Below are positions 5,639 to 44,523 of a DNA stretch of 64,000 nt, piece by piece (the stretch's first letter is position 1; the number at the start of each line of letters is the position of its first letter). Location of the stretch: NCBI GenBank assembly GCA_001816655.1, contig MHCP01000015.1:6485-70484 (forward strand), written 5' to 3'. Under the pieces are notes generated by a model. The model saw nothing but the letters and a program-made list of their open reading frames with translations. It made no database searches and had not been told where the DNA came from. A program made the position numbers and the translations under genes. The DNA comes from Candidatus Woykebacteria bacterium RBG_13_40_15 (GTDB lineage Bacteria > Patescibacteriota > Microgenomatia > Woykebacterales > RBG-16-39-9b).

Positions 5639-5996
5639 TGGTGGAGATGCCCGGCTCTTCCCCGGGGTCCGAAAAGATAACTTACTAGAGAAACTACAAG
5701 CTTAGTCAACATTTAATTTCAGTTTAGGCCTACTAGTTGACGAGCCAGCCTAAACCTAGGTCGCAAGTCTAACTTTCCATAGAAGAACCGGTTCTACAAA
5801 AAGCCTCTTAGCAAGGGTTGCGCCTTGCCATCTCCGCTAAGATAGAGAAACGACAAGACGGCTCATTACGCTACTGCGTATTGAGCGGAAAATGCTTTGT
5901 TGGCATTTATTAGGTTGATCGGAATTTTAACGGTGGTCCCGATCGACACCGGCTTGCTCTTTAGCTAGAGTCTTCCCGTCGAATATATACATCCCC
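5639..5996 (-). ncRNA. ssrA: tmRNA (SsrA)
   Basis: Minus-strand 5' end GGGGATGTATATATTCGACGGG pairs with 3' end CATCTCCACCA, giving a 7-bp acceptor stem with a G3-U wobble, the AlaRS identity element. A T-arm-like CCCGG-GGAAGAG-CCGGG is present. Internal tag ORF is ...GCC AAC AAA GCA TTT TCC GCT CAA TAC GCA GTA GCG TAA TGA, reading ANKAFSAQYAVA then a double stop. smpB is adjacent. Confidence 0.8.
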
Positions 5997-6043
5997 ATGA
6001 TAAGTCAAAACTCAAAATTCAAAAGTCAAATTAAAACTGGTTG

Positions 6044-12866: not shown

Positions 12867-12869
12867 TTT

Positions 12870-13523: not shown

Positions 13524-13524
13524 G

Positions 13525-13872
13525 ATGGATATTTTTAAACCCGCGCTGGCAGCATCTTCTAGCGCAGACGCATCGGGGTGGCTTGGTAAAATTGGCATAA
13601 AACTGCCTGATCTTGGGGGCTTGGTAGCCAGCGCGCTAAAAATCGCTTTTTTCCTTGCGGCTCTTTTTTTCCTCATCCAATTTATTATCGGTGGCTTTTC
13701 CTGGATAGCTGCTGGTGGGGATCAAAAAGCCCTCGATCAGGCCCGTTCGCGCTTGACTAATGCGGTTATTGGTTTATTAATTGTCGTCGCTGCCTTTGGG
13801 GTCATTTATATTATCTTAAGCGCTTTACATATAAATATCTTTTCCGGTGAAACTATAATTATCGGAAAATAA
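13525..13872 (+). CDS. T4SS pilin (TrbC/VirB2-like)
   Basis: GGFSWIAAGGDQKALDQARSRLTNAVIGLLIVVAAF motif and two TM helices. Confidence 0.65.
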   Translation: MDIFKPALAASSSADASGWLGKIGIKLPDLGGLVASALKIAFFLAALFFLIQFIIGGFSWIAAGGDQKALDQARSRLTNAVIGLLIVVAAFGVIYIILSALHINIFSGETIIIGK

Positions 13873-13930
13873 AGCACCCGGTTGCATAAAAGGCTTTCTA
13901 TGCTTTATAATTTTAAAAGGAGGTGAAATT

Positions 13931-14332
13931 TTGGTTCCTATGAAAAAATTACTCGGATCAGCAGGTCTTTCTGCCGCCCTCTTAGCTATTGCGGCTTCGC
14001 CGGCGTTGGCGCAAACAGAGTTTAAATTTACAGCCCCTGCAAACATACCAAGTTTAGGGGAGATGCTATCCAATATACTGGTGTTGCTATTTTTCTTCGC
14101 CGCTCTCTTGGCTTTTGTCTTCATTGTTATCGGCGGTATCCAGTGGATAACTGCCGGTGGAGATAAGCAAGCCGCAGCCTCGGCAAGAGACCGAATCACA
14201 GCTGCAGTAATTGGTCTTGTTATCGTTGTAGCCGCTTTTGCGATTACAGTACTTATCACATCTGCTCTGCATATTAATATCTTTGCACCGGAGGGAATTA
14301 AACTTCCTGGCGGAGACAGTGTATTCAAGTAG
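13931..14332 (+). CDS. T4SS pilin (TrbC/VirB2-like) with signal peptide
   Basis: GGIQWITAGGDKQAAASARDRITAAVIGLVIVVAAF. The C-terminal ALHINIF is shared with the preceding paralogue. Confidence 0.65.
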   Translation: MVPMKKLLGSAGLSAALLAIAASPALAQTEFKFTAPANIPSLGEMLSNILVLLFFFAALLAFVFIVIGGIQWITAGGDKQAAASARDRITAAVIGLVIVVAAFAITVLITSALHINIFAPEGIKLPGGDSVFK

Positions 14333-14349
14333 GCTATCACGAAATAAAA

Positions 14350-14742
14350 GTGTTAAGCCAATTTAAAAAATTACTCTTTAAATTTCCTATTCTGTTATTT
14401 CTTTATTGCTTTATTTTAAAGCTAGGGGTAGCTTATGCTGGAAATGAGGACCTTGACCTCAACCCTTCCCCAGTAACCGACCTCGTAAAAATTTTCGAAA
14501 ACGCACTTTCTGCGGTAATAATACTTGGGGGCCTTGCTTCTTTTGTAATGATTATTGTTTCGGGCTTTAAATTTATCGCCGCTCAAGGAGATCCAAAGGC
14601 TCTTATGTCTGCTCGCTCGTCTCTACTTTGGGCAATTGCTGGGGTCGCTTTTATTATAATCGCGTGGCTTGTTCTTCAGTTTATAGCTAACTTCACAGGG
14701 GTAAATGTAACAATCTTCCGGTTAAATTTCAATCTTGAGTAG
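14350..14742 (+). CDS. T4SS pilin (TrbC/VirB2-like)
   Basis: SGFKFIAAQGDPKALMSARSSLLWAIAGVAFIIIAW motif and two TM helices. Confidence 0.6.
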   Translation: MLSQFKKLLFKFPILLFLYCFILKLGVAYAGNEDLDLNPSPVTDLVKIFENALSAVIILGGLASFVMIIVSGFKFIAAQGDPKALMSARSSLLWAIAGVAFIIIAWLVLQFIANFTGVNVTIFRLNFNLE

Positions 14743-14821
14743 TTATTAACTAACCTTCCTATTGATTTTTCCAAGGAATCTTTAATTTTTTGCTCCTAAT
14801 ATACCCGATCAATTAAACATT

Positions 14822-15508
14822 CTACGGCTCTTCTACGGCTTTTCCCACAGGCAGGTAGACTATGTGTATTTGTTTTTCCGGGTCTGTCAAACCGTACGAC
14901 CGGAGCCAATTCAGGGCCGCGTCTCTGTAAACGTCCATTGGTTTGTTGTCTATAGTTATAAAAAATTTGTCTGTTGATGGCCAATAAGTAATTTTAAAAT
15001 GATTTCCTGTGTATGGCAACTTTTCTTTTATCTTTTGAACCACTCCCGTTGGGGTCTTACTGCTACCAGTCGTAAAATACCACTCATAAATAAGCTTGTT
15101 GTCGAGCTTTACACTAATCGTATATTTTGTTCCTTGAAGAAGAGTTTCTTCCGGTGTAACGACTGCAACAGTCGTTCCAGGAGAAAGTTCCGACCGAAAT
15201 TTAAAGTCTGGCTTTGTTCCAACTTTCACATCCATATCCTTGACTGGTCGATCAAAAAAGATGTTTATTGTTGGTGCTGTTGAAACACCTTCCTGTTTTG
15301 GCAAAGGCTCCACTCTCGACACTAGCAAAGACGCTTTAGCTGCCTTCAGATCCCCTACATCAAGTGCATTGGTTTTTTCGGTTTCTTTTTTGGGGGGTGT
15401 AAGAGTTGTAATGAGTAGGAAAGCTATCGCTGCTATCGAAAAGACAAAAAGCCAAAATTTTTTATCTTTTAATAACTCATTTAGTTTTTCCAGTTTCATG
15501 GGTGGCAA
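14822..15508 (-). CDS. bitopic membrane protein, possible VirB8-like T4SS component
   Basis: Single N-terminal TM helix plus about 190 aa extracytoplasmic domain. Size and topology fit VirB8. No motif-level support. Confidence 0.25.
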   Translation of the reverse strand: MPPMKLEKLNELLKDKKFWLFVFSIAAIAFLLITTLTPPKKETEKTNALDVGDLKAAKASLLVSRVEPLPKQEGVSTAPTINIFFDRPVKDMDVKVGTKPDFKFRSELSPGTTVAVVTPEETLLQGTKYTISVKLDNKLIYEWYFTTGSSKTPTGVVQKIKEKLPYTGNHFKITYWPSTDKFFITIDNKPMDVYRDAALNWLRSYGLTDPEKQIHIVYLPVGKAVEEP

Positions 15509-16977
15509 TTTACTCCTTTATAACTTGTTGAAACCTCATCTCCTACGTTAAAACTGGGGTTTGGCAATAAATTTCTAAATTCTTGCTCGGGCAGCACTTC
15601 GTTCTCCTCATCCCTTATCATATAATGAAGGTGGTTTACGCCGTGTGTATCTCCAGTTGCTCCCATCAATCCTAGAAATTCTCCCTCTGGGACAAAAGTA
15701 TAGTTCTCTGCCGATTGAATGCAGGAGGAATAGGATTTAAGATGCACATAGTAAGTAATGTAGCTGCTTCCTGTTATTGCTACATAAATTCCGCCATATT
15801 CATCAGTATCCTTTAATAGAAGCCCCCCATTAGTTGAAAATATTGGGGTACCTTCATCGTTGTTTATATCTACTGCCGAAGCCTGATCACCGTAATGAGT
15901 ACCTGATGGATTATACGGCCCTTGAGTAATTTGCCCACTAGTTGGCCAATTACCTCCTATACCACCAGGTGTGCCTGTGCCTGTATCTGATACCGCTAAA
16001 TAAACCTCCCAGATTTTGTCGCAATAAGTCATGCTCCCAAACCTCTCTATTGGCTTGTCACAATCTCCATAATAAGCTGTCCCTGCCTTTTCTATCTCAT
16101 CCTCCTTTTCCCAGGCATCGTCGCTATCATTATAATCGTATTTTGTAAATTGGGCCCGATCGCACTCGTCAGAAGGCGCTCCACTATCACATTTTAACTT
16201 CCAAGCCGCGCCATAAATCGCGTTGCGGATATTACGGACATCTGGGTTGGGCGAATAAGTAGTTACCCCTGCTTCAACTACAGCTGTCTTATATGTGCAC
16301 CACGCGCAAGGAGGGTCAGTAACATCTCCACAATCTAGATCGCTTGGTCGAAAACCATAGTCCTCCATATAGTCTACTGACATTTGCATTGGCCCAATGG
16401 CCGAACATCCATTAGGCTCTCTATTTTCAGGATCTATCCCTTCACCGTTTATACCATTTGGGCTACCGGTATAGACGTCTTTGCTATAATCATCGATCTC
16501 TTCATCCGAATAGCCAAAGATGTGGGGACCTTCAATCACAGCGATCCCAACAAGAACCCCCGCCGGCACTTTAGCCCAAGCACCAGCTGCTTCGAAAAGA
16601 CTTTTTAGTTTTGCTGAGCAGGTATCTTCTTCCCCTTCCTCTGGTGGTTCTTCTCCCAACGCCAGTTTACAGTACCCCGGAACTAAATTGTTGCCGCCGG
16701 TTATTGGTACGGCTGCTTCTGCGCTTCCCACGGCTCCCCCAGCCCCACCTCCAAACAAAACAACCACAATAATCACCGCCATTATTACTACTGAAGCGAT
16801 TAACACTAAACCCCCTAGAAAACTTCCTATCCCCGCCCCAGCTATTGCGATGGCGGCTCTAGTTCCAACTTGTTTTATTAACTGCTCCTGAGCAGCACTA
16901 CCCCGGGCCTGCTGAGCTATGTTAGTAAGATCACTTAGGGATGGGCCTTGTTTTTGTTCTTCTTCTTCTTGTGGCAT
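15496..16977 (-). CDS. bifunctional cell-wall hydrolase: lytic transglycosylase-like domain plus M23 peptidase (VirB1/CwlT analogue)
   Basis: N-terminal TM helix. Cys-rich lysozyme-like segment with GPMQ. C-terminal M23 motifs HYGDQASAVDI (HxxxD) and NHLHYMI (HxH). Confidence 0.6.
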   Translation of the reverse strand: MPQEEEEQKQGPSLSDLTNIAQQARGSAAQEQLIKQVGTRAAIAIAGAGIGSFLGGLVLIASVVIMAVIIVVVLFGGGAGGAVGSAEAAVPITGGNNLVPGYCKLALGEEPPEEGEEDTCSAKLKSLFEAAGAWAKVPAGVLVGIAVIEGPHIFGYSDEEIDDYSKDVYTGSPNGINGEGIDPENREPNGCSAIGPMQMSVDYMEDYGFRPSDLDCGDVTDPPCAWCTYKTAVVEAGVTTYSPNPDVRNIRNAIYGAAWKLKCDSGAPSDECDRAQFTKYDYNDSDDAWEKEDEIEKAGTAYYGDCDKPIERFGSMTYCDKIWEVYLAVSDTGTGTPGGIGGNWPTSGQITQGPYNPSGTHYGDQASAVDINNDEGTPIFSTNGGLLLKDTDEYGGIYVAITGSSYITYYVHLKSYSSCIQSAENYTFVPEGEFLGLMGATGDTHGVNHLHYMIRDEENEVLPEQEFRNLLPNPSFNVGDEVSTSYKGVNCHP

Positions 16978-17080: not shown

Positions 17081-18763
17081 ATGTTCCTGCCCAAAAAATT
17101 TGTACTTACATTGGTAGCCGCGATTTCTGCCTTTTTTTTGTTTGGCGCGCCTGTTTTTGCGCTTGAGCAATCAATCACTTCTACAACCCCTAGTGCAACT
17201 ACCTCTGTAGGAGGCGGGCAAGTTATGGGTTGGCAGAGTGCTGTTGGTGATTTTTTTGGAGATGTCGCGGGGGGTATGATGAGTACCGCGACGAAACTCA
17301 TGGGTCAAGCTCTAGATACGGCATTAGACCACTTTTTAATTAAGGGTGCAACTGGGTGCTTATCCTCCGACAAGGGTTGCCAGCAGGAACAAGTTCAGGA
17401 GGTTATGAATGGAACGCCGATTGAAAAAATGAGCAATCCGGGTTTTCTTCATGTTTTAGCTTCCGGTGGGGACCAGCTTATGACTATGCCAATACCAATA
17501 GATACCGGTACCTATTTCGCCTCGATTAACCCTTTTAAACAGGCGCAGGCTGCTGACACTGGTTTTGATGAACTTCAAAGATCGACCGGATTATTGCGCC
17601 TTTGGGTAGTCTTGAGAAACTCTGCCTATGCCCTGTCTGTACTTGTCCTTGTAGTCATTGGCTTTATGATCATGCTTCGGGTGCCGCTTGATCCACGCAC
17701 AGTGGTTACGGCGCAGAGTGCAATCCCAAGGATAATTATTGCCCTTATTTTAATTACGTTTAGTTTTGCGATCGCCGGCCTGTTTCTTGACTTTGGCAGG
17801 CTAGCGGTCCAATCGGTTCATTGGGTATATGGCCAAGTTGGTATTAGTTGGGGCGGAGCCTTGTTGAAGCTTATCGGGGTAATTGTTTTTGGTAGCGCAT
17901 CAATTGGAGCTATCATGGGGTTTGGCCTGCCGGGATTTATTCTTGGAGCGGTAATCGGCGTCATAATCGTTGGGGCGGTCCTTCTGTATCTTTATTTCAA
18001 AATGATTTCTCGGTTTGCCCAATTCGTCGTTCTCTCTATATTCGCGCCAATGGTTTTCTTATATGCCGCTGTTCCCGGACAAACAAGCGCTGCTACAAAT
18101 TGGTTCAAGCGTCAGCTCTCCAATATTCTCGCCACACCGGCCATACTTTTCATGGTCGCCCTAGCTCTTGTTGTAATTAATACCGGTATCCCTAACCCCC
18201 TGTATCGTGGTAACCCTTTTAATCTAGCCGATAGCTTTACTCCATTTTTAGTCGCGTTTGGTATCTTGTTTGCCGCGACACGTGCTCCGGAAATAGTCGA
18301 TGATTTACTTGGTCTAAAGAAAGCGCCCGGAGCTAACGCAGGGTTGACTGGCGCTACACTTATGGGTGGTCTAACCACAGCAACTAGAAATAAAGAACTC
18401 ATAAAGGGTGTTGGATCGCGACTTGCCGGCGGACCGCTTGGAAAGGCGGCTGGTGCCGCCGCTGCACCCCTTCGGGCTGGCGCAAATAAGCTCACAGGTG
18501 GTTACTTCGACCGAAGAGCAGAAAGGGCTAGAGATGACAGAGCTCTTAAGCTGGCAAAGGCGAGTTATGATGAGCAACAAAGAAGAGATCGAGGAACGGA
18601 ACTTTTAAAACAACAGGGTTATATTAAAGGAGAAAAGGGAGAGCAGGGAGAACAAGGAGAGCAGGGAGAACAAGGAGTCTCACTTATCAATCCTGGGCCT
18701 CAATACCCTGCAAAGCCAGCGGGAGGTGGGACAAGCCAGGAGGATCAAAATCAAAATACATAG
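17081..18763 (+). CDS. VirB6/TrbL-like polytopic membrane protein with C-terminal collagen-like GEQ repeats
   Basis: Signal peptide and at least 6 TM helices in the central region. C-terminal GEKGEQGEQGEQGEQG is encoded by a tandem 18-nt DNA repeat at about 18628-18675. Confidence 0.45.
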   Translation: MFLPKKFVLTLVAAISAFFLFGAPVFALEQSITSTTPSATTSVGGGQVMGWQSAVGDFFGDVAGGMMSTATKLMGQALDTALDHFLIKGATGCLSSDKGCQQEQVQEVMNGTPIEKMSNPGFLHVLASGGDQLMTMPIPIDTGTYFASINPFKQAQAADTGFDELQRSTGLLRLWVVLRNSAYALSVLVLVVIGFMIMLRVPLDPRTVVTAQSAIPRIIIALILITFSFAIAGLFLDFGRLAVQSVHWVYGQVGISWGGALLKLIGVIVFGSASIGAIMGFGLPGFILGAVIGVIIVGAVLLYLYFKMISRFAQFVVLSIFAPMVFLYAAVPGQTSAATNWFKRQLSNILATPAILFMVALALVVINTGIPNPLYRGNPFNLADSFTPFLVAFGILFAATRAPEIVDDLLGLKKAPGANAGLTGATLMGGLTTATRNKELIKGVGSRLAGGPLGKAAGAAAAPLRAGANKLTGGYFDRRAERARDDRALKLAKASYDEQQRRDRGTELLKQQGYIKGEKGEQGEQGEQGEQGVSLINPGPQYPAKPAGGGTSQEDQNQNT

Positions 18764-18822
18764 CAAAATGGGGTCACTTCTCGCATTACTGCTTAAAGCA
18801 ACCCCATGTGTGATCACCTCCT

Positions 18823-21681
18823 TTACACTGCTGGCACTACAAGTGGGCTACCGTTTCCCCTAGGCACCCACTTCCTGCCATAATACTGCCCTTGCTCCAA
18901 GAGATAGGGAATTGTTCCCCCAACTATCTTTATCTCCTCGTTGGTCCATCTACCCTCAATGTCTAAGAGAACCTTCTCGGGACTCGTTCTCCCAAAATTG
19001 AGAGCTGCGGCTCCAAGCAACGGCTGGACAACTTCCTTCGCAACCGTCTGTATATCCTCCCACTCTTCAAACGTACCGTCCATGATCTTCCCTGCGATCA
19101 AACCCTGTGCCTTTTCCGGGCTCTGCTGGTAGTAGTTGAAGCCAAGGACCTTGGCCAAGCGGCTCTGAGCTAGGAAACTAGCCGATTGTTTAGGGAGCCT
19201 GATCACATGGAATCTCTTTGCTTGCTGTACCTTTGGATCGTGGATGCTTAGCCCCCGACGATATGCCCCTTCCAGCAAACGAAGCGCCATTGGAAGGCTG
19301 GCTTGCTTAAGCTCGCCATCATTGCCATTGGCCAACTCTATCAGCACAGCATCTGCGAAATCGTCGGCTACCTCAAGCCTTTTTGCAGCGAAGTTGCGCC
19401 AGTCCGGCCGACCATCTCCCTCAAGCCATGGCTGTCCTGCCAAATCCGCTCGGTATCCTTTACGGAGATCGGTTTCCCCCATGTCCTCATTTTCTTGGGC
19501 TTGCCTATCTATCAGGGCTTGCTTAGGAGCGAGTGGCTGTCTATTCCACATGAGTAACAGCATATTCCCAAATTGGGTGTAGCTGGGTCTAGCTGGGTCG
19601 TTGCTGGTCCAGCGACTAAACCGGACATTTTCTTCCGACCCAAAAGCCATGGGCGAGCGGAATCTCTGGTTCGTTTTATCCACGAGGGACATGAATACAA
19701 TCCCATCGTAGGTTTCCCACAGCCATTTGGGATCGTCCGTAGCCAGGTCTATTTTCTGGAGGGCCCAGAGGAACTCGTTGGGGTAGTTCATTACCTTCGC
19801 CAAATCTCTGTCCACCCCAGTTGCACCTCGGGGTGGAAGAACCCCCCAAATCGCTTGGCCGCAATAGCTCCAGATCATCTCCAAACCCGACTGAAAAGCC
19901 AAGTGAGCATCAAAGATCTCCCTAGCTAGGGAGTTTCCGTGGTCTCTTTCCTCAAAGGGATCCTTCATCATCCAGTAGGGACCGAGGATCCTTTCTCTCA
20001 CAGCCTGGATCGTCTCTTCCTCCGTCGGCGCTCTGTTGTCGTGGCCTTCTTTCCACCCCGCTAACCAGCGCGGACCGAGATACTCTAACCGCTCCTCTTG
20101 GCTCCTTCCGCTCACCTCTTCGGCGAGCTTGTAGAGCCGCATGAAACGATCGTTGTACTTCCACTCAAGTGGCGGCCGTGGCCCTCCAGCGTCATTGTCG
20201 CACGCTTGGGCGTTCACTGCTTCAGTAAGGCCTCCCTGACCACGCTTTGTACGCATGCTCCTCGCCATCTGCCAGGCTCTAATGATTCGGACGATGTCGC
20301 GCAAGACCTCGAAAGGCGCGGCGAACATCTTCATTGCCTCCCAATTCAACCCATCCGGGGTAAGGACCGGAGGCTCAATCAGGTGGAAGTAAAAGCCAAC
20401 CAGTGTCCATAGCTTGTCGGCCTTTTGCTCCCAGGTAACGGCTTGTATGTTCCAGACTGATTGCCAGATCTTCCTGAGCTGGTTTAGCTCCGTTAGGTTC
20501 ATCCAGTCGTATTCCTCATTGAGAAGATTCTCGAAGCCGCCCTGAACAGGAAGACAACTTAGGGCAGCCCTGACCGGATCAACCTCTAGGGCATCGAAGT
20601 CTGCTTCTGGGCCCGCCCCACTCTCTTGGAACTTTGTTCGTTCCTGTTCCTTTATCTTCTGCAGGCCTTCGTAGACCTGCCGAGCAGTAACAAACTCCAA
20701 TGCCACCTCAAGGTGAACGCGGTAGTAAAGCGCCCCCTCGGTTTCCAGCCAGCCGGGTACGCAAAGCTTGCCCCCTATTTTCATAAATGGCAGGGGCGGT
20801 GGAACATCCTCAGTCTCTGGATCGTACCGCTCTTTGATTAGAGAGGGGTCCCGAAGAGCTCTGAGGAGGTCGAAATCCAAAGAGTCCCCTGTGACTGGAT
20901 TGGCGTAGCCTCTGTAGCAGTAGGGGACATACGTCTTCTCCTTAGGCCGCCTTTCCACGCTAGCAGGGTCTCTGCGGTAGTCCTCGATTAGCTTCCACCT
21001 CCTCTCCAACTCCTCGTTGTACCGCTTTTCCAACCGGGCCTTTGGCACCATGTGGAACGGTTGGCGAGGGCTTTGGGAGTAGGCCTCTTCTATAATCGGG
21101 GTCAGGACCCAGTAGCGAACTCGCTGAATTTCACCTAGGAATTTGTAGGTTTCGTCTCCGAGAGAGAACGTGTGGAATTTTCTATATGCCTTTCTCTCCC
21201 TACTGCCCTCCTCTCCACTCTGGAGACGTTTTTCGTAGTGCTCCCCCCATCTCTCCTGATGGGTAGCGAAGGCCCCCCTCATTCCCTCTGGCAAGTGGCC
21301 CAAGAACATCGGCTCGCCCTTCACCATACGGTAGATGTTGCCTTTATCATCCAGAAGGACGTGGGCTTTTTTTCCCTTCTTAGGCGACCACTCAAGGTCC
21401 AGCCTTTTGTACAAACTTTCCAGATCCTGTGGCTTCGTGGTCCTCCACATCCATACCGGCACGTAGATTCGGATCCCCTTCTGTGAGAAGAACTCCAGTA
21501 GCCTGTCGATTATCCTTGTCGTTATGGCTTGAAGTAGTGCCCACTCAGAGCTGAAGGGAAACCTTCTGCCTCCCGCATAGTCTTCGTCCTGCAACCAAGT
21601 CCTGTCGGTTACCCGAACACCGCTTGTGGCAGCTTGTTCCTCTTCCTCTTCTTGAAAGTCCGTGTCGTTCATCATTGTCAT
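18823..21681 (-). CDS. large hypothetical protein (952 aa) in GC-rich island 1
   Basis: Long uninterrupted ORF. Local GC is markedly higher than flanks. No recognisable catalytic motif by eye. Acidic N-terminus, Trp-rich. Confidence 0.6.
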   Translation of the reverse strand: MTMMNDTDFQEEEEEQAATSGVRVTDRTWLQDEDYAGGRRFPFSSEWALLQAITTRIIDRLLEFFSQKGIRIYVPVWMWRTTKPQDLESLYKRLDLEWSPKKGKKAHVLLDDKGNIYRMVKGEPMFLGHLPEGMRGAFATHQERWGEHYEKRLQSGEEGSRERKAYRKFHTFSLGDETYKFLGEIQRVRYWVLTPIIEEAYSQSPRQPFHMVPKARLEKRYNEELERRWKLIEDYRRDPASVERRPKEKTYVPYCYRGYANPVTGDSLDFDLLRALRDPSLIKERYDPETEDVPPPLPFMKIGGKLCVPGWLETEGALYYRVHLEVALEFVTARQVYEGLQKIKEQERTKFQESGAGPEADFDALEVDPVRAALSCLPVQGGFENLLNEEYDWMNLTELNQLRKIWQSVWNIQAVTWEQKADKLWTLVGFYFHLIEPPVLTPDGLNWEAMKMFAAPFEVLRDIVRIIRAWQMARSMRTKRGQGGLTEAVNAQACDNDAGGPRPPLEWKYNDRFMRLYKLAEEVSGRSQEERLEYLGPRWLAGWKEGHDNRAPTEEETIQAVRERILGPYWMMKDPFEERDHGNSLAREIFDAHLAFQSGLEMIWSYCGQAIWGVLPPRGATGVDRDLAKVMNYPNEFLWALQKIDLATDDPKWLWETYDGIVFMSLVDKTNQRFRSPMAFGSEENVRFSRWTSNDPARPSYTQFGNMLLLMWNRQPLAPKQALIDRQAQENEDMGETDLRKGYRADLAGQPWLEGDGRPDWRNFAAKRLEVADDFADAVLIELANGNDGELKQASLPMALRLLEGAYRRGLSIHDPKVQQAKRFHVIRLPKQSASFLAQSRLAKVLGFNYYQQSPEKAQGLIAGKIMDGTFEEWEDIQTVAKEVVQPLLGAAALNFGRTSPEKVLLDIEGRWTNEEIKIVGGTIPYLLEQGQYYGRKWVPRGNGSPLVVPAV

Positions 21682-21972
21682 TTGTCGTTCTCCTTGGTGT
21701 GTTTTAATGCCGCTTTCGCAGCTTCTTTAAGTGGTTGTATTCAAACTCCGCTTGACGCGATGCGTCTGCGGAAGGGAATTGAATCAAACCCACTTGGTGA
21801 AGCGCAAAAAGCAGCTCACACCAAGGGGTGTCTACCCGCCGGCCGGCGGGCAAGCATCCCTTGGTGTTTTTCACCAAGAAGCTATACCGAATTAAGAATT
21901 TATAATTCAGAATGCAGAATTTCTCCTTCTTTATTTTCGAATATTTACTTTTTAAAGTTCTACAAAAAGATA

Positions 21973-22003
21973 AGCGGGCTCTAGGTATTTCCCAGAGCCC
22001 GCT
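21973..22003. repeat. boundary hairpin AGCGGGCTCT-loop-AGAGCCCGCT (island 1)
   Basis: 10-bp stem with 11-nt loop. Near-identical to the hairpin at 47434-47464. Confidence 0.6.
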
Positions 22004-22364
22004 TCACCACCAGCCACCGGCTGATGTCTCGCCATTACGGCGAGATCTGCTCTGGGCTTTTCTCAATGATTAATTTGAAGCTAAATTTCATTTTAAATTT
22101 CCTCGTGCTTATTCTAGCACAAATCGTTGAGTTTGTCAAACCTATAGTCACTCGACTACATCTCGCGCCTGTTTCTCTGCGAGATATAATACGCAAGTAT
22201 TACCTGCCCGACGCTAAAGCTTTGGCAGGCGGGCATTCTGCGTATTGTTTCCTTGCAGGATATAATAATCCGTCTCCTTTACTTTATTTTTGATCTATTT
22301 TGAACTGGTTGCTTTTACCAACCAAATAGTCAATAATAGTGGGCGAAGAAGAGGGACGATATTA

Positions 22365-22395
22365 CAGTAAGCAGAAAGCAGTAAGCAGTAAGCGG
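22365..22395. repeat. CAGTAAGC/CAGAAAGC short tandem repeat block
   Basis: cagtaagcagaaagcagtaagcagtaagcgg. Related motif at 22828-22870 and at 44501-44523. Confidence 0.6.
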
Positions 22396-22415
22396 GTTGG
22401 AACTAAAAATCAACT

Positions 22416-22847
22416 TTGCTAGCTGCTACAAGTTTTCTACAAAGTGCCTCGGCAGAGAGCAGAAAGCAGATGCCCAACAGTTCGAGTTTCGAAAAAATAA
22501 AGGCTTGGCAAAAAGGTCATCTATTAGCCTTGGAGGTTTACAAAGTTACCAAGTCGTTTCCGCGGGAAGAGGCTTTCGGTCTAACATCTCAGTTACAACG
22601 TGCTGCAATATCCGTCCCCACCAACATAGCAGAAGGTTACGCAAGACAAAATAATAAGGTCTTTGGAACATTTTTAGATACGGCTTACGCGTCGCTAGTT
22701 GAAATTAAGTATTTATTAAAGTTTTCTGCAGAGGTTGGTTATATTTCGAAACAAAATTTTATTAAATTAGAATCTTTAGCTGACGAGGTCGGCAAGGTTC
22801 TTTGGAAATTTATGAAGGAGGTAAAATCAGTAAGCAGTAATCGGTAA
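22416..22847 (+). CDS. four-helix-bundle protein (23S rRNA intervening-sequence protein / Avd-like family)
   Basis: 143 aa. Pattern KIKAWQKGHLLALEVYKVTKSFPREEAFGLTSQLQRAAISVPTNIAEGYAR is characteristic of the PF05635-type four-helix-bundle family, which includes DGR Avd. Confidence 0.6.
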   Translation: MLAATSFLQSASAESRKQMPNSSSFEKIKAWQKGHLLALEVYKVTKSFPREEAFGLTSQLQRAAISVPTNIAEGYARQNNKVFGTFLDTAYASLVEIKYLLKFSAEVGYISKQNFIKLESLADEVGKVLWKFMKEVKSVSSNR

Positions 22848-22934
22848 GCCTAATTGGAAAGCAGAAAGCAAACGCTAATTGTTATCTGCTAACTAACGGG
22901 TGCTAACTGTTCAACTGCTAACTGCTAACTGACT
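22828..22934. repeat. short tandem repeats: CAGTAAGC-like followed by four copies of GCTAACT
   Basis: cagtaagcagtaatcggtaagcc...gaaagcagaaagc, then gctaact at 22888, 22902, 22917 and 22924. GCTAACT approximates the reverse complement of AGTAAGC. Confidence 0.6.
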
Positions 22935-23459
22935 GTGCAGCAGCATCCTGTACCGCAAAACATAACTGGCTTTGAGTTTAAACTGATTGGCTTTCTGACT
23001 ATAAAGCAGTTTGCTTATTTGGCGGGGGCTTCTATCCTCTCTTTTGCTTGCTATTTTATATTGCCCGGCCTTTTGCGTTGGATGATTATCTTACCAGTTA
23101 TGGCGGCGGGAAGTGCTTTTGCCTTTCTGTCCCTAAACGGTATGTCTTTCGACAAATGGATCATTGCCTTTATCCGATTGATAAGCAACCCCCAGATAAG
23201 AGTTTGGAGAAAAACACCTAAGGTTATTAGCTTTCTAGCCCCAGAATTTTCCTACTATTTACGCCGAGGAGTAGAAGCGGCACAACCCACTCAAGCACCA
23301 AGCAAAGATCGTCTTAAACTCTTTGTTAGCCAACTTCAGGAACAAAAGCCAGAGGATCAGTTGGACGTTTTTGAAAAAAGCCGGCTCTCAAAGTTAAATT
23401 TTGCTGCCCGAGAGACTCCCCAAACACCTATACCGGACCAGGAAGGAGTGGCCCCTTAG
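22935..23459 (+). CDS. small two-TM membrane protein, possible VirB3-like T4SS component
   Basis: 174 aa with two adjacent TM helices near the N-terminus. Its position in the T4SS locus fits VirB3 or a VirB3-like protein. Confidence 0.3.
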   Translation: MQQHPVPQNITGFEFKLIGFLTIKQFAYLAGASILSFACYFILPGLLRWMIILPVMAAGSAFAFLSLNGMSFDKWIIAFIRLISNPQIRVWRKTPKVISFLAPEFSYYLRRGVEAAQPTQAPSKDRLKLFVSQLQEQKPEDQLDVFEKSRLSKLNFAARETPQTPIPDQEGVAP

Positions 23460-25985: not shown

Positions 25986-27800
25986 ATGACATTTAATATT
26001 TTTGGAAAAAAACAAAAAACACAACCAGAAAATCCCAATCTACAAAGTACCCGAGACAAAACCGCGAGATTCCTTGGTACTGGAATGGTTGATGTAAAGG
26101 ATGTTATTGCACCAGCAGCAATACAGGTCGAGTTTGATCATGTAAAAATCGGCGAAACATATTTTAGAACCCTTTTAGTTGCTGGTTACCCCAGATTTAT
26201 AGGAGCTAACTGGCTTGCCCCTTTAATCAACTTTGATCACACTCTTGATCTTTCCTTTTTCTACTACCCTGTAGAAACCAGGGGTATTTTAAGCGATCTG
26301 AGACGTAAAATAGCAGAAATGGAAGCAACAATCGAATCTGATTTGGAATCTGGTAGGGTCCTTGATCCAGCCATTAGGGCCTCCCTTGAAGATGCCCAAG
26401 AGTTGCAGGAGCAGCTGGCTACTGGAATTGAAAGGTTTTTTCAGTTTTCCTTTTATATCAAAATACCCGCAAATAGTTTGGAGGAATTAAATAAAATAAC
26501 GCGGGAGGTGGAAGCTGTTGCTGGATCCTTGTTGATAATAACTAAACACGCAAGCTTGCAACAAGAGCAGGGATTTCAAAATACCTTACCTTACTTTTCC
26601 GACAAATTATTCTCAATTAGAAACATGGATACAATAAGTCTTGCCACAACCTTCCCCTTTACAAGTTCCGAATTAACGGCAGACGAGGGTGTCCTCTACG
26701 GAATAAATGAGCATAATGGATCCCTAGTTATTTTTGACCGTTTCTCGCTAGAAAATGCTAACAGTGTTGTTTTTGCAAAATCGGGAGCAGGAAAAAGCTA
26801 TCTAGTTAAGTTGGAGGCTTTGCGCTCTTTAATGTTTGGTACCGAAATAATCATCATCGACCCTGAAGATGAGTACAAAGATCTAGCGGTGACCATCGGC
26901 GGTGAATATATAAAATTCGCCCAAAATCAGCCGGCAAAAATTAACCCATTTGACCTTTCCGGAATCTATGAAGAAGGGGAGAATGAGCTTGGATTAAAGA
27001 TCTTATCCCTTCACGCTCTTTTTCGAATAATGTTAGGGGAACTTACTCCTACCGAAGATGCCATTCTTGATCGGGCCTTAATAACTACTTATAAACTCAA
27101 GGGGGTTACTCCAGATCCTGCAACACAAACTAAAGAACCTCCAATTTTGGCCGATTTATACAATGTGCTGCAGAATATGGCGGAGTCTTCAGCAAGGGAA
27201 ATGGCGCAAAGGCTGGAAAAATTCATAAAAGGCTCGCTCTCTGGTATTTTTGACCAGCCTAGTACAGTTAACTTGTCCAACTCATTCACAGTTTTCTCCA
27301 TTAGAGAGCTCGAAGACGAGCTGCGTCCTATTGCTATGTTCATTGTCCTTGATCATATCTGGACTAAGATTAAGAGGGATAGAAAAAAGAGACTTCTTGT
27401 AGTGGACGAGGCTTGGTATTTAATGAAATACCAAGATTCTGCTTCATTTATGTATTCTATGGCAAAGAGGGCTCGTAAATACAACTTGGGGGTAACAACT
27501 ATCACGCAGGATGTTGAGGATTTTTTGAACAGTGACTACGGTAAAGCAATTGTTACGAACTCTTCCATCCAAGTTTTGCTTAAGCAGAGCCCGGCTGCAA
27601 TTGATAAAATTGTTGAAGTATTTTATTTATCGGCTGGTGAAAAAAATCTTTTACTTTCGTCAGATATTGGTGAGGGGCTGTTCTTTGTAGGCCCCAATCA
27701 TGTAGCAATTAGGATCCAGGCGTCGCCTGATGAACACATGCTTTTAACACGCGGGCAGCAAACTCCCAAACCCACGGAAGAGCCGCCTAAGGCTCAATAA
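25986..27800 (+). CDS. VirB4/TraE/CagE-family conjugal-transfer ATPase (C-terminal ATPase part)
   Basis: Walker A VVFAKSGAGKSYLVK and Walker B RLLVVDEAWYLM (DEAW is typical of VirB4). 604 aa. Confidence 0.75.
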   Translation: MTFNIFGKKQKTQPENPNLQSTRDKTARFLGTGMVDVKDVIAPAAIQVEFDHVKIGETYFRTLLVAGYPRFIGANWLAPLINFDHTLDLSFFYYPVETRGILSDLRRKIAEMEATIESDLESGRVLDPAIRASLEDAQELQEQLATGIERFFQFSFYIKIPANSLEELNKITREVEAVAGSLLIITKHASLQQEQGFQNTLPYFSDKLFSIRNMDTISLATTFPFTSSELTADEGVLYGINEHNGSLVIFDRFSLENANSVVFAKSGAGKSYLVKLEALRSLMFGTEIIIIDPEDEYKDLAVTIGGEYIKFAQNQPAKINPFDLSGIYEEGENELGLKILSLHALFRIMLGELTPTEDAILDRALITTYKLKGVTPDPATQTKEPPILADLYNVLQNMAESSAREMAQRLEKFIKGSLSGIFDQPSTVNLSNSFTVFSIRELEDELRPIAMFIVLDHIWTKIKRDRKKRLLVVDEAWYLMKYQDSASFMYSMAKRARKYNLGVTTITQDVEDFLNSDYGKAIVTNSSIQVLLKQSPAAIDKIVEVFYLSAGEKNLLLSSDIGEGLFFVGPNHVAIRIQASPDEHMLLTRGQQTPKPTEEPPKAQ

Positions 27801-28884
27801 TTTTTCCATCAACCATATTTAATACACGGGCCCGCTTTTTAAATTCCGCTGTTAGAAGATCGAGGCTCGTGGTCGTAATTAATATCTGGCGTGCGCTAAT
27901 GTGAGTAAGGAGCAGCCCCCTGTTCTTTTCGTCAAGTTCGCTCGTAACATCGTCGAGAAGTATTACCGGAGGCTCGCCGAAAATTCGCGAAAAAAGCTGG
28001 GCTTGGGCAAGGTTCAATAAAATTATGGCTTGGCGTTTTTCTGCTCTGGAACCAAAGGGGCCTAAATCTTTCTCCAAAATTGATTGTCCTAACTCTTCCT
28101 CTACAACTAGTTTGAGGTCGTCTCTGTGTGGGCCAAAAGTAGTCATTATTAACCGCCGTTCTACACCTCGTTTATTTTTAAGGGCTCGTAAGAACTCTTT
28201 CTTACTTAGTCCCTCACTCTCTAGATTAATTGGGACCGTGTATTCAATACGAGCATTTTTTCCTATCGTTCCTTTTGAGATTTTATTTAGAATTCTATTT
28301 AAACTGCTTATTTCTTTTTCGCGCTCCTGCCAAAGTTTTATGCCGTACTTGGCAAGAAGCCTATCCCATGTTTCAAGTTGTTCCTCAGTCGCATTTCCAC
28401 CGGAGATTTTGAGAAGCTTGTTCCGATTAATCAGGGTTTTATTGTAATTAATCAAATTGAAAAGGTAACCTCGATTTATTGTTGCGATTAATTTGTCCAG
28501 CCAAACCCTTCTAGCGGCTGGTGGCCCTCCAATTAGTTCTATTTCTCCTGGGTGAAAAAGGACTGTTGCTAGCCTGCCCAAAAGATAAGTAGCTGGCTTT
28601 GTTTTATTATTGATTATTATCTTGGTTTCTCCCTCTCGGTAAAGGAATATACGAATACTACCCTTACTAGTCTCACCGAATATCTCAGCGTTACTCTCGT
28701 TCCAATTGATCGCCTCGCTTCTTGTTCCATGAAACGGTTTGCCATAAGAGAGCAAATAAACAGCCTCGATGAGGTTTGTTTTCCCCTGACCATTGCCTCC
28801 AACAACAATTGTTACTCCGCTACCCAATTGTAGGTCGGAAATATCTAGATTTCGGAAGTTTCTTATGGAAAGGGTTTTCAACAT
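27787..28884 (-). CDS. recF: DNA replication and repair protein RecF
   Basis: N-terminal LSIRNFRNL...IVVGGNGQGKTNLIEAV Walker A. SMC-like signature near the C-terminus. Confidence 0.85.
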   Translation of the reverse strand: MLKTLSIRNFRNLDISDLQLGSGVTIVVGGNGQGKTNLIEAVYLLSYGKPFHGTRSEAINWNESNAEIFGETSKGSIRIFLYREGETKIIINNKTKPATYLLGRLATVLFHPGEIELIGGPPAARRVWLDKLIATINRGYLFNLINYNKTLINRNKLLKISGGNATEEQLETWDRLLAKYGIKLWQEREKEISSLNRILNKISKGTIGKNARIEYTVPINLESEGLSKKEFLRALKNKRGVERRLIMTTFGPHRDDLKLVVEEELGQSILEKDLGPFGSRAEKRQAIILLNLAQAQLFSRIFGEPPVILLDDVTSELDEKNRGLLLTHISARQILITTTSLDLLTAEFKKRARVLNMVDGKIIEP

Positions 28885-29985
28885 TTAACTTTGCGGGCGG
28901 ACAGGCATGATTACAAAACTAAGATTCTTTTTGTCCCTGCCGCGGAAGATGGCAGCACTTGTACTTCCACTAAGGGACATCGTCATCTGCTCGTCCTTAA
29001 TAGCGGAGAGGCTCTCGAGCAGAAACCGCGAATTGAAAGCCAGGGTCATTTTTTCGCCATCAATATTAGCGTGCATCTCTGTCTCGGCATCTCCCACTTG
29101 GCTGGTGGCTCCTGTTAATTTAAGCTTTCCTGCGCCAAGCTCAATCTTAACTACATTACCAACATCTCGGGCAAACAAGGCCCCCAATTTTACAGCATTT
29201 ACCAGCGCTTTCGTGCTAACAGTCACTGTGGAGCAAAAGGCTGTTGGTATTATTTGTTCAAAACTTGGATAGGCTCCTTCTAGGAGTCTGCTTATAATAA
29301 TTAGGTTTCTAGTCTCAATTTTTGCCTGGTTTTTTTCTTTGTCAACAGATAGTTGCACCGTCTCGTCTTCTTGGTCGGCAACGGCTTTGACGGTTTCCTG
29401 AAGGGCTCTTGATGGGATTAATACCTCGAAATCACCAGAGCCTGTTATTTCATTTTTGCCTAGCCTGTAACCGTCCGTAGCGACAAAAACCAATTTACTA
29501 GCAGACCCTTTTATAAGTATCCCTGTTAGCACAGGGCGGCCTTCCTCAGCCGCCGCACAGAAAATAACCGAGGATACGGTATTTAAAAAGGTTTGCCTCT
29601 CCAATTCTAAGGTGGACGCGGATTCAAATGTAGTAACTTTCGGAAACTCGCTTGGGTTTATTGTGGAAAGGGTTGCTTTGGAGTCGCCCGACTCTAGTAA
29701 TACGCTATCCTTTACAGTTTTAATGGTGAGCTGCTCGTTTGTGGCGGCCTGACAAAAGTCAACCAAAAGTCTGGCAGGAACGGTAGTTTCTCCATTTTCC
29801 TCAATTTTTACACTCATTTGTTTTATGATTGTTGTTTCTAAATTGGTTCCGGTTATTTTAAGCATGCCGGAGTTTGCTTCCAGTAAAAGATTTCCCAATA
29901 CGGGTAAACTTAAACGTGTTGTTATTGCTTGTGAAACAAGAGACGCTGCCTTTAAAAGTGTTTCTCTGTTAGTGACTAACTTCAT
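28885..29985 (-). CDS. dnaN: DNA polymerase III beta sliding clamp
   Basis: 366 aa. N-terminus MKLVTNRETLLKAASLVSQAI...LPVLGNLLLEA is typical of DnaN. Sits between dnaA and recF. Confidence 0.85.
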   Translation of the reverse strand: MKLVTNRETLLKAASLVSQAITTRLSLPVLGNLLLEANSGMLKITGTNLETTIIKQMSVKIEENGETTVPARLLVDFCQAATNEQLTIKTVKDSVLLESGDSKATLSTINPSEFPKVTTFESASTLELERQTFLNTVSSVIFCAAAEEGRPVLTGILIKGSASKLVFVATDGYRLGKNEITGSGDFEVLIPSRALQETVKAVADQEDETVQLSVDKEKNQAKIETRNLIIISRLLEGAYPSFEQIIPTAFCSTVTVSTKALVNAVKLGALFARDVGNVVKIELGAGKLKLTGATSQVGDAETEMHANIDGEKMTLAFNSRFLLESLSAIKDEQMTMSLSGSTSAAIFRGRDKKNLSFVIMPVRPQS

Positions 29986-30090
29986 TTTTATTACTTAATA
30001 TTAATAATAGTCGTAGTAATAGAGGCAGAAAAAAGTAAATTTTATACTACAACAAGCAGGGGAAAGGTTTGTGGAAAAACGCAAAAGTTA
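29986..30090. promoter_or_regulatory. candidate oriC segment (dnaA-dnaN intergenic, AT-rich with DnaA-box-like TGTGGAAAA)
   Basis: AT-rich TTAATATTAATAATAG plus a one-mismatch DnaA box. Position is classic between dnaA and dnaN. Confidence 0.35.
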
Positions 30091-31452
30091 TTAACCACCA
30101 AGGGCCTTATCCTTGACCTCTGCAACTATTCTACCAATTTCCCCATCCTTTTCCACTAGGTTTTCCACCTTGCTGACAGAATAAATTACCGTGGTGTGGT
30201 CCCTACCCCCTAAAAGAGAGGCGATCTCGTTAAAAGAAAGCCCCACCTCAGTGCGTAGTAAGTACATTGCTACTTGCCGGGGAAAAACACACTCTTTGCC
30301 CCTTTTTACGCCCCGTAAGTCCGATAAACTAAGAGAGAAAAACCTAGCTATTTCGGCCAATATTTCTTCCGCGGAGGGCTTCTTTGGGGGATCCAAATTA
30401 ATTGAGTTTTTTACGAGCTCCTCATTTATAGCTCGTCCAGTAAGCTTTGCAATAGCAAGCAACCGTAGTAATCCACCCTCCAAAGACCGAACGCTTGGGC
30501 CTAAACGCTCCGCCATAAAGCGAATTGTGGGAAAATCTATTGAAGCCCCTTCCGAATGCGCCTTTGCCAGCAGAATTGCCTCTCTTAGTTCCAGGTCGGG
30601 GGTTTCTATCTTGACTACCATACCACCAGAAAACCTGTTTCTCAACCGCTCATGTAGATTTGAAAGTTGTGCTGGATCACGATCGCAACAAAGAATAATC
30701 TGTTTACCACGACCGTGCAGATGATTAAAAGTGTGAAAAAATTCTTCTTGAGTGCTTTCTCTCCCAGCTATAAACTGAATATCATCAATAAGCAAGAGAT
30801 CCACGGCCCGATATTTGGCCCGAAAATCTACAGTTTGCCGTTTTTGAATAGCTTCAATCATATCGTTGGTAAAAGTCTCGCTTGAGGAATAAATTACCCG
30901 GCTAGGGTTTCGGCGAAGAATTACTCCCTGGCCAATCGCCTGCAGGAGGTGGGTCTTTCCCACCCCAACCCCACCGTAGATTAAAAGCGGATTGTAACGC
31001 TCAAAGGGGGAGTCGACAACGGCTTTGGCAACAGCGTAAGCAAGTTGATTAGATTGGCCGACGATAAAATCTGCGAACGAATATTTTGGATTTATATTGG
31101 AAACAACCAAGGACTCCTTGATTGTTGAGGAAGCAGCGTCCTCAAACAAAGGTATGGCCAGCTCCGGATTTTTCGGCTCCTTCACTTTTGGCGCCTCAAG
31201 CCCTTTTGCGGAAACCGTGAAGACTAAGGTCGCAGATGCCCCGGAGATACGCTCAACAATTTCCTTTATTTGCCCTAAGTATCGTTCTTCAATCCATGTT
31301 TTATTGTATGGGCTAGAGCAACCAATTTCCACAACACCGTCCTTGAGAGACAATACTCCAGTCTTGCCCTTAAACCAAGTTTGAAAGTTGGCGGCGGACA
31401 ATGTTAATTGTAATTCAGTTAAAACCGATTCCCAAAGGGATTTTTCATCCAT
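30091..31452 (-). CDS. dnaA: chromosomal replication initiator DnaA
   Basis: AAA+ Walker A GGVGVGKTHLLQAIG, Walker B LLLIDDIQF, and a C-terminal DNA-binding domain (HTTV). Confidence 0.9.
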   Translation of the reverse strand: MDEKSLWESVLTELQLTLSAANFQTWFKGKTGVLSLKDGVVEIGCSSPYNKTWIEERYLGQIKEIVERISGASATLVFTVSAKGLEAPKVKEPKNPELAIPLFEDAASSTIKESLVVSNINPKYSFADFIVGQSNQLAYAVAKAVVDSPFERYNPLLIYGGVGVGKTHLLQAIGQGVILRRNPSRVIYSSSETFTNDMIEAIQKRQTVDFRAKYRAVDLLLIDDIQFIAGRESTQEEFFHTFNHLHGRGKQIILCCDRDPAQLSNLHERLRNRFSGGMVVKIETPDLELREAILLAKAHSEGASIDFPTIRFMAERLGPSVRSLEGGLLRLLAIAKLTGRAINEELVKNSINLDPPKKPSAEEILAEIARFFSLSLSDLRGVKRGKECVFPRQVAMYLLRTEVGLSFNEIASLLGGRDHTTVIYSVSKVENLVEKDGEIGRIVAEVKDKALGG

Positions 31453-44492: not shown

Positions 44493-44500
44493 GCAGATAT

Positions 44501-44523
44501 CAGAAAGCAGACAGCAGTAAGCG
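44501..44523. repeat. CAGAAAGCAG...CAGTAAGCG motif at left edge of GC-rich island 2
   Basis: cagaaagcagacagcagtaagcg shares a 10-mer and a 9-mer with the repeat at 22365-22395. Confidence 0.5.

Follow-up and report, generated by a model that had tools for sequence, protein, structure and literature searches.

The four-helix-bundle (4HB) gene described here is found in a 64,000-nucleotide stretch (the window) of contig MHCP01000015.1 from Candidatus Woykebacteria bacterium RBG_13_40_15, where it occupies positions 22470 to 22847 of the plus strand and encodes a protein of the PF05635 / TIGR02436 family. Directly downstream is a prgI-family gene (22935 to 23459, plus strand; PF12666 with E=2.3e-13, TraG P-loop with E=2.9e-27), which heads an operon comprising prgI and the genes for a 600-amino-acid protein, a TraC-like protein and a VirB4-like protein. 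The 4HB gene is bracketed by tandem arrays of heptanucleotides in two opposite orientations, denoted (+) and (-). Our preferred interpretation is that the feature is one copy of a widespread cassette, in which a PF05635 gene lies between inverted arrays of 7- or 8-nucleotide repeats, and that this copy resides in the leader of the prgI-VirB4 operon.

All elements of the window cassette are read on the plus strand. A promoter-like element, TTGCTT-17 nt-AATAAT (22309 to 22337), scores under the threshold of a consensus scan; its two hexamers and their spacing are kept in an alignment of three Woykebacteria lineages, and it is probably the promoter of the entire 4HB-prgI transcript. The predicted 5' end of this transcript carries an 18-nucleotide box, AAGAAGAGGGACGATATT (22346 to 22363), that is 100% identical in the Woykebacteria loci L001 to L007. 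The box was also considered as a dispersed motif or promoter element and rejected, as it occurs at this single locus only among the window and all loci fetched by that point. The distal (+) arm, cagtaagcagaaagcagtaagcagtaagcgg (22365 to 22395), reads CAGTAAG CAGAAAG CAGTAAG CAGTAAG CGG, which Tandem Repeats Finder (TRF) reports as 4.1 copies of period 7 with 90% matches. A short inverse-type segment, TTTGCTAGCTGCTAC (22415 to 22429), is predicted to form with this arm a small hairpin that encloses no open reading frame (ORF). A further (+) array of CAGAGAG CAGAAAG CAG (22453 to 22469) precedes the ATG and is kept in L001 and L005.

The proximal (+) arm (22828 to 22869) overlaps the TAA stop codon of the 4HB gene (22845 to 22847), a layout that is common to L001, L005 and L099. 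It reads CAGTAAG CAGTAAT CGGTAAG CC...GGAAAG CAGAAAG C and includes cagtaagcagtaatcggtaagcc (22828 to 22850) and gaaagcagaaagc (22857 to 22869). The (-) arm (22884 to 22934) is built of the inverse units CTGCTAA / GCTAACT in four copies, with GCTAACT at 22888, 22902, 22917 and 22924, and ends at the GTG start codon of prgI. A related solo (+) array is located in the groEL 3' untranslated region (UTR), at 44494 to 44523 (plus strand; CAGATAT CAGAAAG CAGACAG CAGTAAG CG), and includes cagaaagcagacagcagtaagcg (44501 to 44523), which begins 9 nucleotides 3' of the groEL stop codon (44492). TRF delimits the period-7 arrays as 22365 to 22393, 22452 to 22470, 22828 to 22849, 22901 to 22931 and 44493 to 44522.

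An earlier, sequence-only reading of this DNA had drawn attention to these repeats, and a direct check of the window finds every element that it quoted at the coordinates that it gave. Its description of GCTAACT as roughly the inverse of AGTAAGC is apt, the reverse complement AGTTAGC being one mismatch away; the repeats around the 4HB gene are indeed meaningful and inversely oriented, and the groEL-side motif belongs to the same repeat family. Clustering of the heptamers at these two loci is far above chance. The pattern CAGWAAGCAG matches 6 times in the window, compared with 0.25 expected, and none of 100 shuffled sequences reaches 6. Similarly, CAGN4CAGN4CAG matches 6 times (0.17 expected), and every match in the 64 kb lies at the 4HB or the groEL locus.

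The assignment of the 4HB protein to the family of PF05635 or 23S rRNA intervening sequence (IVS) proteins, which also takes in Avd, is confirmed by profile searches: PF05635 is matched with E=1.2e-35 (122.4 bits; cut-off, 33.8) and TIGR02436 with 111.7 bits (cut-off, 24). The ORF had been given as 143 amino acids from a TTG codon at 22416. A protein of 125 amino acids starting at the ATG at 22470 is probably correct instead, because the identical database protein has this length and because both the orthologue alignment and the Pfam coverage begin at this ATG. That database entry (100% identity, 125 amino acids) is from Candidatus Woykebacteria RBG_13_40_15, a bacterium of the candidate phyla radiation (CPR). 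Judged by sequence similarity, the protein has a fold related to those of solved four-helix-bundle members. The closest of these is PDB 2GSC (E=1.2e-17, residues 7 to 99), deposited as five chains and described as a homopentamer, and 2RLD is matched with E=5e-4.

Orthologues in three other Woykebacteria lineages occupy the same site with 74-78% amino acid identity. In these lineages the 4HB protein is conserved better than PrgI (50-53%), the 600-amino-acid protein (35-42%) and the TraC-like protein (66-68%), and the dN/dS ratio of 0.05-0.09 within the clade indicates strong purifying selection. Therefore, the gene is functional and long resident here. Synteny is shared throughout L001 to L007, in which the 4HB gene is directly upstream of the genes for PrgI, the large protein, the TraC-like protein and the VirB4-like protein, followed by recF-dnaN. 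The Woykebacteria alignment also has a constant order of elements, namely the promoter-like element, the 18-nucleotide box, a (+) array of CAGNNAG units, the ORF and a (-) array; the last codons of the ORF run into a second (+) array, and the (-) array then ends at the prgI start. An extra ORF-less hairpin, consisting of a (+) array, a loop and a (-) array, follows the box in the window, precedes it in L001 and is missing from L005. The window cassette is a three-arm variant of the form (+) ... ORF ... (+)(-), and the same layout is seen in a minority of the remaining loci, among them L099, L024, L061 and L011.

Paired inverted arms are not peculiar to Woykebacteria. Eighty diverse PF05635 loci were drawn from species-representative genomes of groups that include Acidobacteriota, Bacteroidota, Planctomycetota, Verrucomicrobiota, Chloroflexota, Proteobacteria and several CPR groups. 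In the 75.6 kb that lie within 250 bp of a 4HB gene there are 112 period-7 arrays, and in the 428 kb elsewhere in the same loci there are 73, an approximately 9-fold enrichment; period-8 arrays are likewise enriched near 4HB genes. Arrays occur on both sides of the gene in 50 of the 82 loci that have enough flanking sequence, and in 45 of these 50 the upstream unit is the reverse complement of the downstream unit with at most two mismatches. The unit itself varies by locus, as exemplified by AGGCTGT/CCTACAG (13.6 copies) in L012, GGCAGTC/ACTGCCT in Bosea and GTAAATG/ACCATTT in L041.

A TRF-independent alignment score for inverted repeats gives the same picture. Its median is 40 for the two flanks of one gene and 17 for flanks paired across loci, and the own-pair score exceeds the 95th percentile of the control in 65 of 77 bacterial loci (p=1e-40). 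The score also passes in 45 of 54 loci on viral contigs, and among neighboring genes of the same loci, which served as a control, 10 of 135 pass. The arms have a median of 4.4 copies, and the downstream arm begins a median of 4 nucleotides past the stop codon. While the unit changes between loci, its length stays at 7 or 8 and the number of copies at about 4.4, and the aligned arms have a median length of 33 nucleotides with 86% identity. The arms probably owe their repetitive makeup to slippage and to concerted evolution inside an arm, while selection holds the two arms in approximate complementarity.

These counts bear on the idea that the arrays are generic repeats, either REP (repetitive extragenic palindrome)-like terminators or neutral microsatellites that lie near the 4HB gene by accident. 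The window does contain other heptamer arrays, TCAAAAN x4 (6005 to 6038) and TTTTACT x4 (2082 to 2110), and relatives carry ORF-less CAG-heptamer hairpins at several intergenic sites. However, accident does not account for an array density that is about nine times higher beside 4HB genes, for paired inverted arms at 84% of 4HB genes compared with 7% of their neighbors, for the gain and loss of arrays together with the gene (see below), or for the confinement of CAGN4 triplets to two loci in 64 kb. Nor does the structure resemble a terminator: no T-run follows the hairpin (the RNA would have no U-tract), the hairpin runs directly into the GTG start codon of prgI, and a terminator scan of 22828 to 22934 is empty. 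A generic origin is disfavored and very unlikely. As a separate observation, the TCAAAAN array lies directly 5' of the tmRNA gene (5639 to 5996, minus strand).

The short tandemly repeated repetitive sequences (STRRs) of cyanobacteria are also tandem heptanucleotide arrays in intergenic DNA. STRRs are not known to form paired inverse arrays that bracket a specific gene family, and the loci sampled here are not cyanobacterial.

When whole cassettes (median length 486 nucleotides, n=45) are folded as RNA by minimum free energy (MFE), at least half of the upstream arm is paired with the downstream arm in 42 of the 45. The median paired fraction is 81%, compared with 0% when the downstream arm is shuffled, and the arm stem contributes a mean of -24.5 kcal/mol. 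In the window, the predicted hairpin of the proximal (+) arm with the (-) arm has a free energy of -34.7 kcal/mol (z = -4.1), and none of 200 shuffled sequences is as stable. The duplex of the distal arm with the (-) arm is predicted at -55.6 kcal/mol, compared with -38.6 +/- 5.2 kcal/mol for shuffles, and the distal arm with TTTGCTAGCTGCTAC forms a weak local hairpin (-18 to -23 kcal/mol; shuffles, -13 to -14 kcal/mol). No rRNA is found by Rfam in the window, and no Rfam family matches the 4HB region or the related loci.

The closest known system is the IVS in helix 45 of the Coxiella burnetii 23S rRNA, which is 428 nucleotides long and contains an S23p (PF05635) ORF (PMC4990558). In that element the purine-rich AGAAGA and then three to four tandem heptamers, whose copy number varies among strains, precede the ORF, and RNase III cleaves where the first repeat begins (PMC4990558). 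The window cassette is similar in several respects. Both carry a PF05635/S23p ORF, the lengths are comparable (428 nucleotides versus the median of 486 nucleotides), AGAAGA followed by heptamers ahead of the ATG resembles AAGAAGAGGGACGATATT followed by (CAGWAAG)4, and ORF-less forms exist for Coxiella-type IVSs and for cassettes alike. Unlike an IVS, the window cassette is situated in an mRNA leader or operon spacer instead of an rRNA helix (helix 25 or 45), and it has a three-arm layout. Also, the window 4HB gene is under strong purifying selection, whereas the Coxiella S23p protein is thought to be unmade and its gene decaying.

The cassettes match the Coxiella IVS in overall length and ORF, in the period of the repeats, and in how long and how complementary the arms are; on this basis an IVS-type function is proposed, with about even confidence. 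Transcription would start at the promoter upstream and run through the cassette into the prgI operon. In the RNA, the complementary arms of the cassette would form an imperfect stem, about 30 bp long, that most likely would serve as an RNase III processing site. Cleavage there would set the 4HB mRNA free or insulate it, and the prgI message downstream would keep a short leader. The (-) arm has two alternative partners, the distal (+) arm and the (+) arm at the stop codon, so that the structure formed could depend on translation of the 4HB gene. By analogy with Coxiella, cassette arms are probably RNase III substrates. The data establish the architecture and how general it is, the co-variation and predicted pairing of the arms, the contexts, and the common gain and loss of gene and arrays; pairing of the RNA in vivo, the cleavage and any effect on prgI are inferences.

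Several observations weigh against this proposal. Mismatches between the arms are systematic, about one per unit being fixed, and in three Woykebacteria lineages the fifth base of the unit, an A in the (+) arm, never has its complement in the (-) arm. There is no excess of G.U among arm mismatches on the sense strand (23 vs 26), so selection for pairing at the RNA level rather than at the DNA level is unproven. Many arrays are composed of a constant core and a variable spacer, and conserved solo (+) arrays that have no partner are not explained by a pure stem model. In the window itself, the MFE structure favors two local hairpins over a stem that closes around the 4HB ORF. Finally, RNase III cleavage is documented only for the Coxiella IVS, and for none of the cassettes outside rRNA.

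Some of these features would be expected if the arrays instead were bound by a pentameric ring of 4HB protein, with one unit per protomer, in which case the (-) arm might be an anti-arm and solo arrays might be targets in trans. The median of 4.4 copies per arm and the five chains of the homopentamer 2GSC are suggestive of such an arrangement, as are the units with a core and a variable spacer (for example, CAG+4, CTGAG+3 and AGAG+4). The fixed mismatches speak against simple selection for a stem, the solo (+) arrays in the groEL 3' UTR are conserved without a partner, and the 4HB gene is under strong purifying selection. Also, unit families are common to separate sites within a genome, as at 22.4 and 44.5 kb in the window, at several sites in L001 and in L009. 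An analogy is provided by TRAP and the trp leader in Bacillus, where a ring oligomer reads short, evenly spaced repeats and the outcome is set by a rival RNA structure, although TRAP is an unrelated protein with a repeat period of 5-6 nucleotides instead of 7-8 nucleotides, and binding by 4HB proteins is only putative. On the other hand, units diverge widely across loci while the invariant residues of the protein stay the same, copy numbers rise to 13-27, and the model does not demand complementary arms, much less arms that share unit variants. We regard binding by the protein as unlikely to be the explanation of the arrays.

The pairing and binding models might be combined, although such a combination is improbable at present. 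4HB proteins outside of diversity-generating retroelements (DGRs) might conceivably be ring-shaped readers of 7-8-nucleotide repeats, and the cassettes might be autoregulated RNA-processing modules. With similarly low confidence, binding of the (+) arm might compete with pairing to the (-) arm and thereby decide whether the stem is formed or cut, which would tie expression of the host operon, in this case prgI-VirB4, to the cassette. Targets in trans would then be provided by solo (+) arrays, for example that conserved in the groEL 3' UTR of Woykebacteria, a suggestion that is equally doubtful.

The groEL array has neither an inverse partner nor a 4HB gene, its predicted fold is no better than those of shuffles, and no pseudogene or remnant of a 4HB gene is found beside it by tblastn at E<=10. 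In five related Woykebacteria lineages, whose GroEL proteins are 82-84% identical, a period-7 array lies straight after the groEL stop codon in every case, as (CAGNNNN)3-4 in four and in degenerate form in L171. In three of these relatives the array is just ahead of an intrinsic terminator. Because the array is in the same place in all five relatives and the genes downstream of groEL differ from those in the window, it is an old 3'-UTR feature of the clade and not the edge of an island. Downstream in the window, a strong hairpin, gtcaggggaacctcggtttggaagttcccctgac (44634 to 44668), separates the groEL 3' UTR from a convergent gene (44678 to 45565) and is probably a terminator.

Relatives have ORF-less repeats at other places as well. 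The CAG-heptamer hairpins in L001 (3640 to 3760) and L005 (1790 to 1950) are situated on the tip of an existing stem (cttgggagg...ccctccaag), much as IVSs are situated on the tips of rRNA helices. The host stem lies in the noncoding region between an upstream divergent gene and the 4HB gene, and has no match in Rfam.

Among the sampled loci, PF05635 genes are found in operon spacers. In 52 of 75 loci the genes on both sides run in the same direction as the 4HB gene, and because the gaps are only 71 and 47 nucleotides, the arms fill the spacers. Spacers whose flanking genes were confirmed with Pfam are nuoC|nuoD in Bosea sp. OK403, groES|groEL in Formosa sp. A9, sdhA|sdhB in Blastocatellia and Capnocytophaga, and atpG|atpD. 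The conserved 23S rRNA motif GGATAACAGGCTGAT is present in none of the 229 loci fetched; as sampled, the family lies outside rRNA in spite of its Pfam name.

Gain and loss of the cassette can be followed at the prgI site. A search with the VirB4-like protein retrieved 80 metagenomic loci at 57-82% identity, and 50 of these contain prgI together with at least 700 nucleotides of upstream sequence. A 4HB gene lies directly before prgI in 6 of the 50, and arrays of period 7 or 8 within 700 nucleotides upstream are present in all six, compared with 5 of the 44 in which no 4HB gene was detected (Fisher p=3e-5). These six mostly have paired flanking arms that end within about 12 nucleotides of the prgI ATG. 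Arrays and the 4HB gene are thus gained and lost jointly. L122 has an ORF-less inverted pair before prgI with the unit AGGTAAA, which is also the unit of the L149 cassette; L152 retains a remnant of the (-) arm and no detected 4HB gene; and in L151 (3990 to 4500) the ORF before prgI is 4HB-like and divergent, may be decaying, and is flanked by arrays. As tblastn at 1e-4 missed L151, the cassette is undercounted at this site. Loci that have the 4HB gene occupy at least five separate positions in the VirB4 tree, and the units differ by clade (CAGNAAG, the 8-nucleotide AGAGTANA, AGGTAAA and ACTAACG). Losses are documented in this patchy distribution, and repeated gains of the cassette are possible.

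Loss of the prgI Shine-Dalgarno sequence in cassette-bearing loci was also considered and rejected, because most prgI genes lack this sequence regardless (present in 0 of 6 vs 4 of 27, p=0.55). In the cassette-free relatives (L110 to L165), prgI is mostly without a Shine-Dalgarno sequence and often has a TATACT- or TACAAT-like box 6-10 nucleotides before the ATG, which together suggest leaderless or near-leaderless prgI mRNAs.

Patchiness invites a reading of the arrays as DNA, in which a mobile element would carry them as its terminal inverted repeats or recombine at them. Besides the five or more positions in the VirB4 tree, occurrence in many unrelated operon spacers and on viral contigs fits mobility, as do the ORF-less hairpins, which are differently placed in the window and L001 and are inserted on an existing stem tip in L001 and L005. 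Opposed to this are the lack of target-site duplications in 64 loci, where adjacent direct matches of 2-5 nucleotides are at or below chance, and the lack of an associated transposase or integrase, the 4HB gene being the sole cargo; no transposase was seen in any cassette. Position is stable in Woykebacteria in spite of saturated synonymous divergence, the remnants in L152 and the decaying ORF in L151 fit loss as well as they fit gain, and both window arrays lie in conserved sequence instead of at island borders. It is improbable that the arrays function as DNA sites of this kind. The suggestion that the 4HB gene is a mobile cassette fares differently at two scales, the gene being fixed within the clade (dN/dS 0.05-0.09) and patchy at the same site across the wider group.

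The cassettes also resemble REP/BIME (bacterial interspersed mosaic element) and MITE (miniature inverted-repeat transposable element) sequences in being imperfect palindromes in operon spacers that have dispersed ORF-less copies and may affect mRNA processing or stability. Unlike these, they have arms of 7-8-nucleotide units that change between lineages and a conserved ORF of their own, with no target-site duplication in the 64 loci and no RAYT or transposase partner seen. Also, no continuation of the stem beyond the arms is found in the 64 loci.

The sequence-only reading had further suggested that the repeats are att-like sites that link two islands. Both arrays are, however, inside sequence that is conserved in relatives, namely the leader of the prgI operon and the groEL 3' UTR, and target-site duplications are lacking. 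Going left from the 4HB gene, homology with relatives ends at about 22288, which places the synteny break about 75 nucleotides outside the left array. No integrase domain was found among the neighbors scanned, a set that does not extend to genes of the second region of the window. The arrays are almost certainly integral parts of the cassette, and not island or att sites.

Relatedness to Avd raises the question of whether the locus might be a remnant or accessory of a DGR in which the ORF acts as Avd. The bAvd protein is basic and binds nucleic acids. It has a homologous four-helix-bundle fold and is a pentamer (PDB 4DWL), and the 4HB protein matches Avd models weakly in both Pfam and NCBIfam. 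The score for the bAvd-like family PF22296 is only just below the cut-off (37.6 vs 40 bits), and Avd and IVS proteins are known to be homologous (PMC10053308). However, the candidacy of the 4HB protein as a DGR Avd was rejected, as the equivalog model NF033474 gives 32.3 bits where the cut-off is 80. No reverse transcriptase (RT) domain is present in the 16 larger ORFs scanned within 10 kb (11.2 to 31.5 kb), which encode T4SS (type IV secretion system) pilins, an Ig-like protein, an M23 peptidase, PrgI, TraC-like, VirB4-like, RecF, DnaN and DnaA proteins, and proteins without hits. The search for a template and variable repeat (TR/VR) pair within 10 kb, as the sequence-only reading had advised, was negative: there is no direct repeat of at least 30 nucleotides in 12 to 33 kb and none of at least 45 nucleotides in the whole window. 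A DGR target gene is lacking as well, and flanking tandem-repeat arms such as those of the 4HB cassette are foreign to DGR architecture. The DGR reading is effectively refuted for the window, and its probability is negligible.

Several features near the cassette were observed in passing. The GC content of 17081 to 21681 is 0.51-0.53, compared with about 0.42 for the window, and this stretch contains ORFs of 560 and 952 amino acids that have no Pfam or NCBIfam match. Neither ORF has a counterpart in the same place in related Woykebacteria, and they mark a lineage-specific region whose right border is at about 22288. A coding tandem repeat of 9/18 nucleotides, (GGAGAACAG)5.4, lies within the 3' end of the 560-amino-acid ORF (18629 to 18677). 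Upstream of the 952-amino-acid gene on the minus strand, a strong promoter-like sequence, TTGACA-17-TAGAAT with an upstream TG (11 of 12 matches), is found at 22139 to 22111, followed by a terminator-like 14-bp GC-rich hairpin and T-run (22004 to 21972, minus strand) with no Rfam match. Together, 21972 to 22139 could define a small RNA of roughly 110-170 nucleotides or an attenuated leader before the 952-amino-acid gene.

Farther to the left, four paralogues of T4SS_pilin (PF18895), an Ig-like protein and an M23 peptidase are clustered at 11166 to 16977. This pilin cluster and prgI, the TraC-like gene and the VirB4-like gene probably constitute a type IV secretion or conjugation-like apparatus of a CPR bacterium. 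On the other side, recF, dnaN and dnaA (27787 to 31452) adjoin the VirB4-like operon. The cumulative GC skew is lowest at about 30-32 kb, which makes it probable that the window contains the replication origin.

The PF05635 family is large, with 20,136 clusters at 50% identity reaching E<=1e-3. No function is known for it outside DGRs, and it was named after a few rRNA intervening sequences. The survey indicates that PF05635 genes are almost always accompanied by inverted, co-varying arrays of 7-8-nucleotide repeats, which lie in transcribed spacers of the core operons nuo, atp, sdh and groESL, on viral contigs and, in the window, ahead of a CPR secretion operon. A full-text literature search that did not reach older subscription titles gave no account of this association as a general one, of operon spacers as a habitat, or of ORF-less derivatives away from rRNA, and heptamers beside an S23p ORF were noted only in the Coxiella IVS paper (PMC4990558). 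The window copy is a well-preserved three-arm example of an ORF-bearing, IVS-like element in a CPR genome.

If 4HB proteins do read these repeats and govern the processing of their own transcripts, a protein family that has had no function since its discovery in rRNA IVSs would acquire one, and the cassettes would define a new class of element, one that inhabits operon spacers and needs no transposase to spread. The association links rRNA IVSs and many genes annotated as "four helix bundle protein" as one kind of element. It also makes the function of the family testable, through RNase III cleavage, binding of the repeats and effects on flanking genes.

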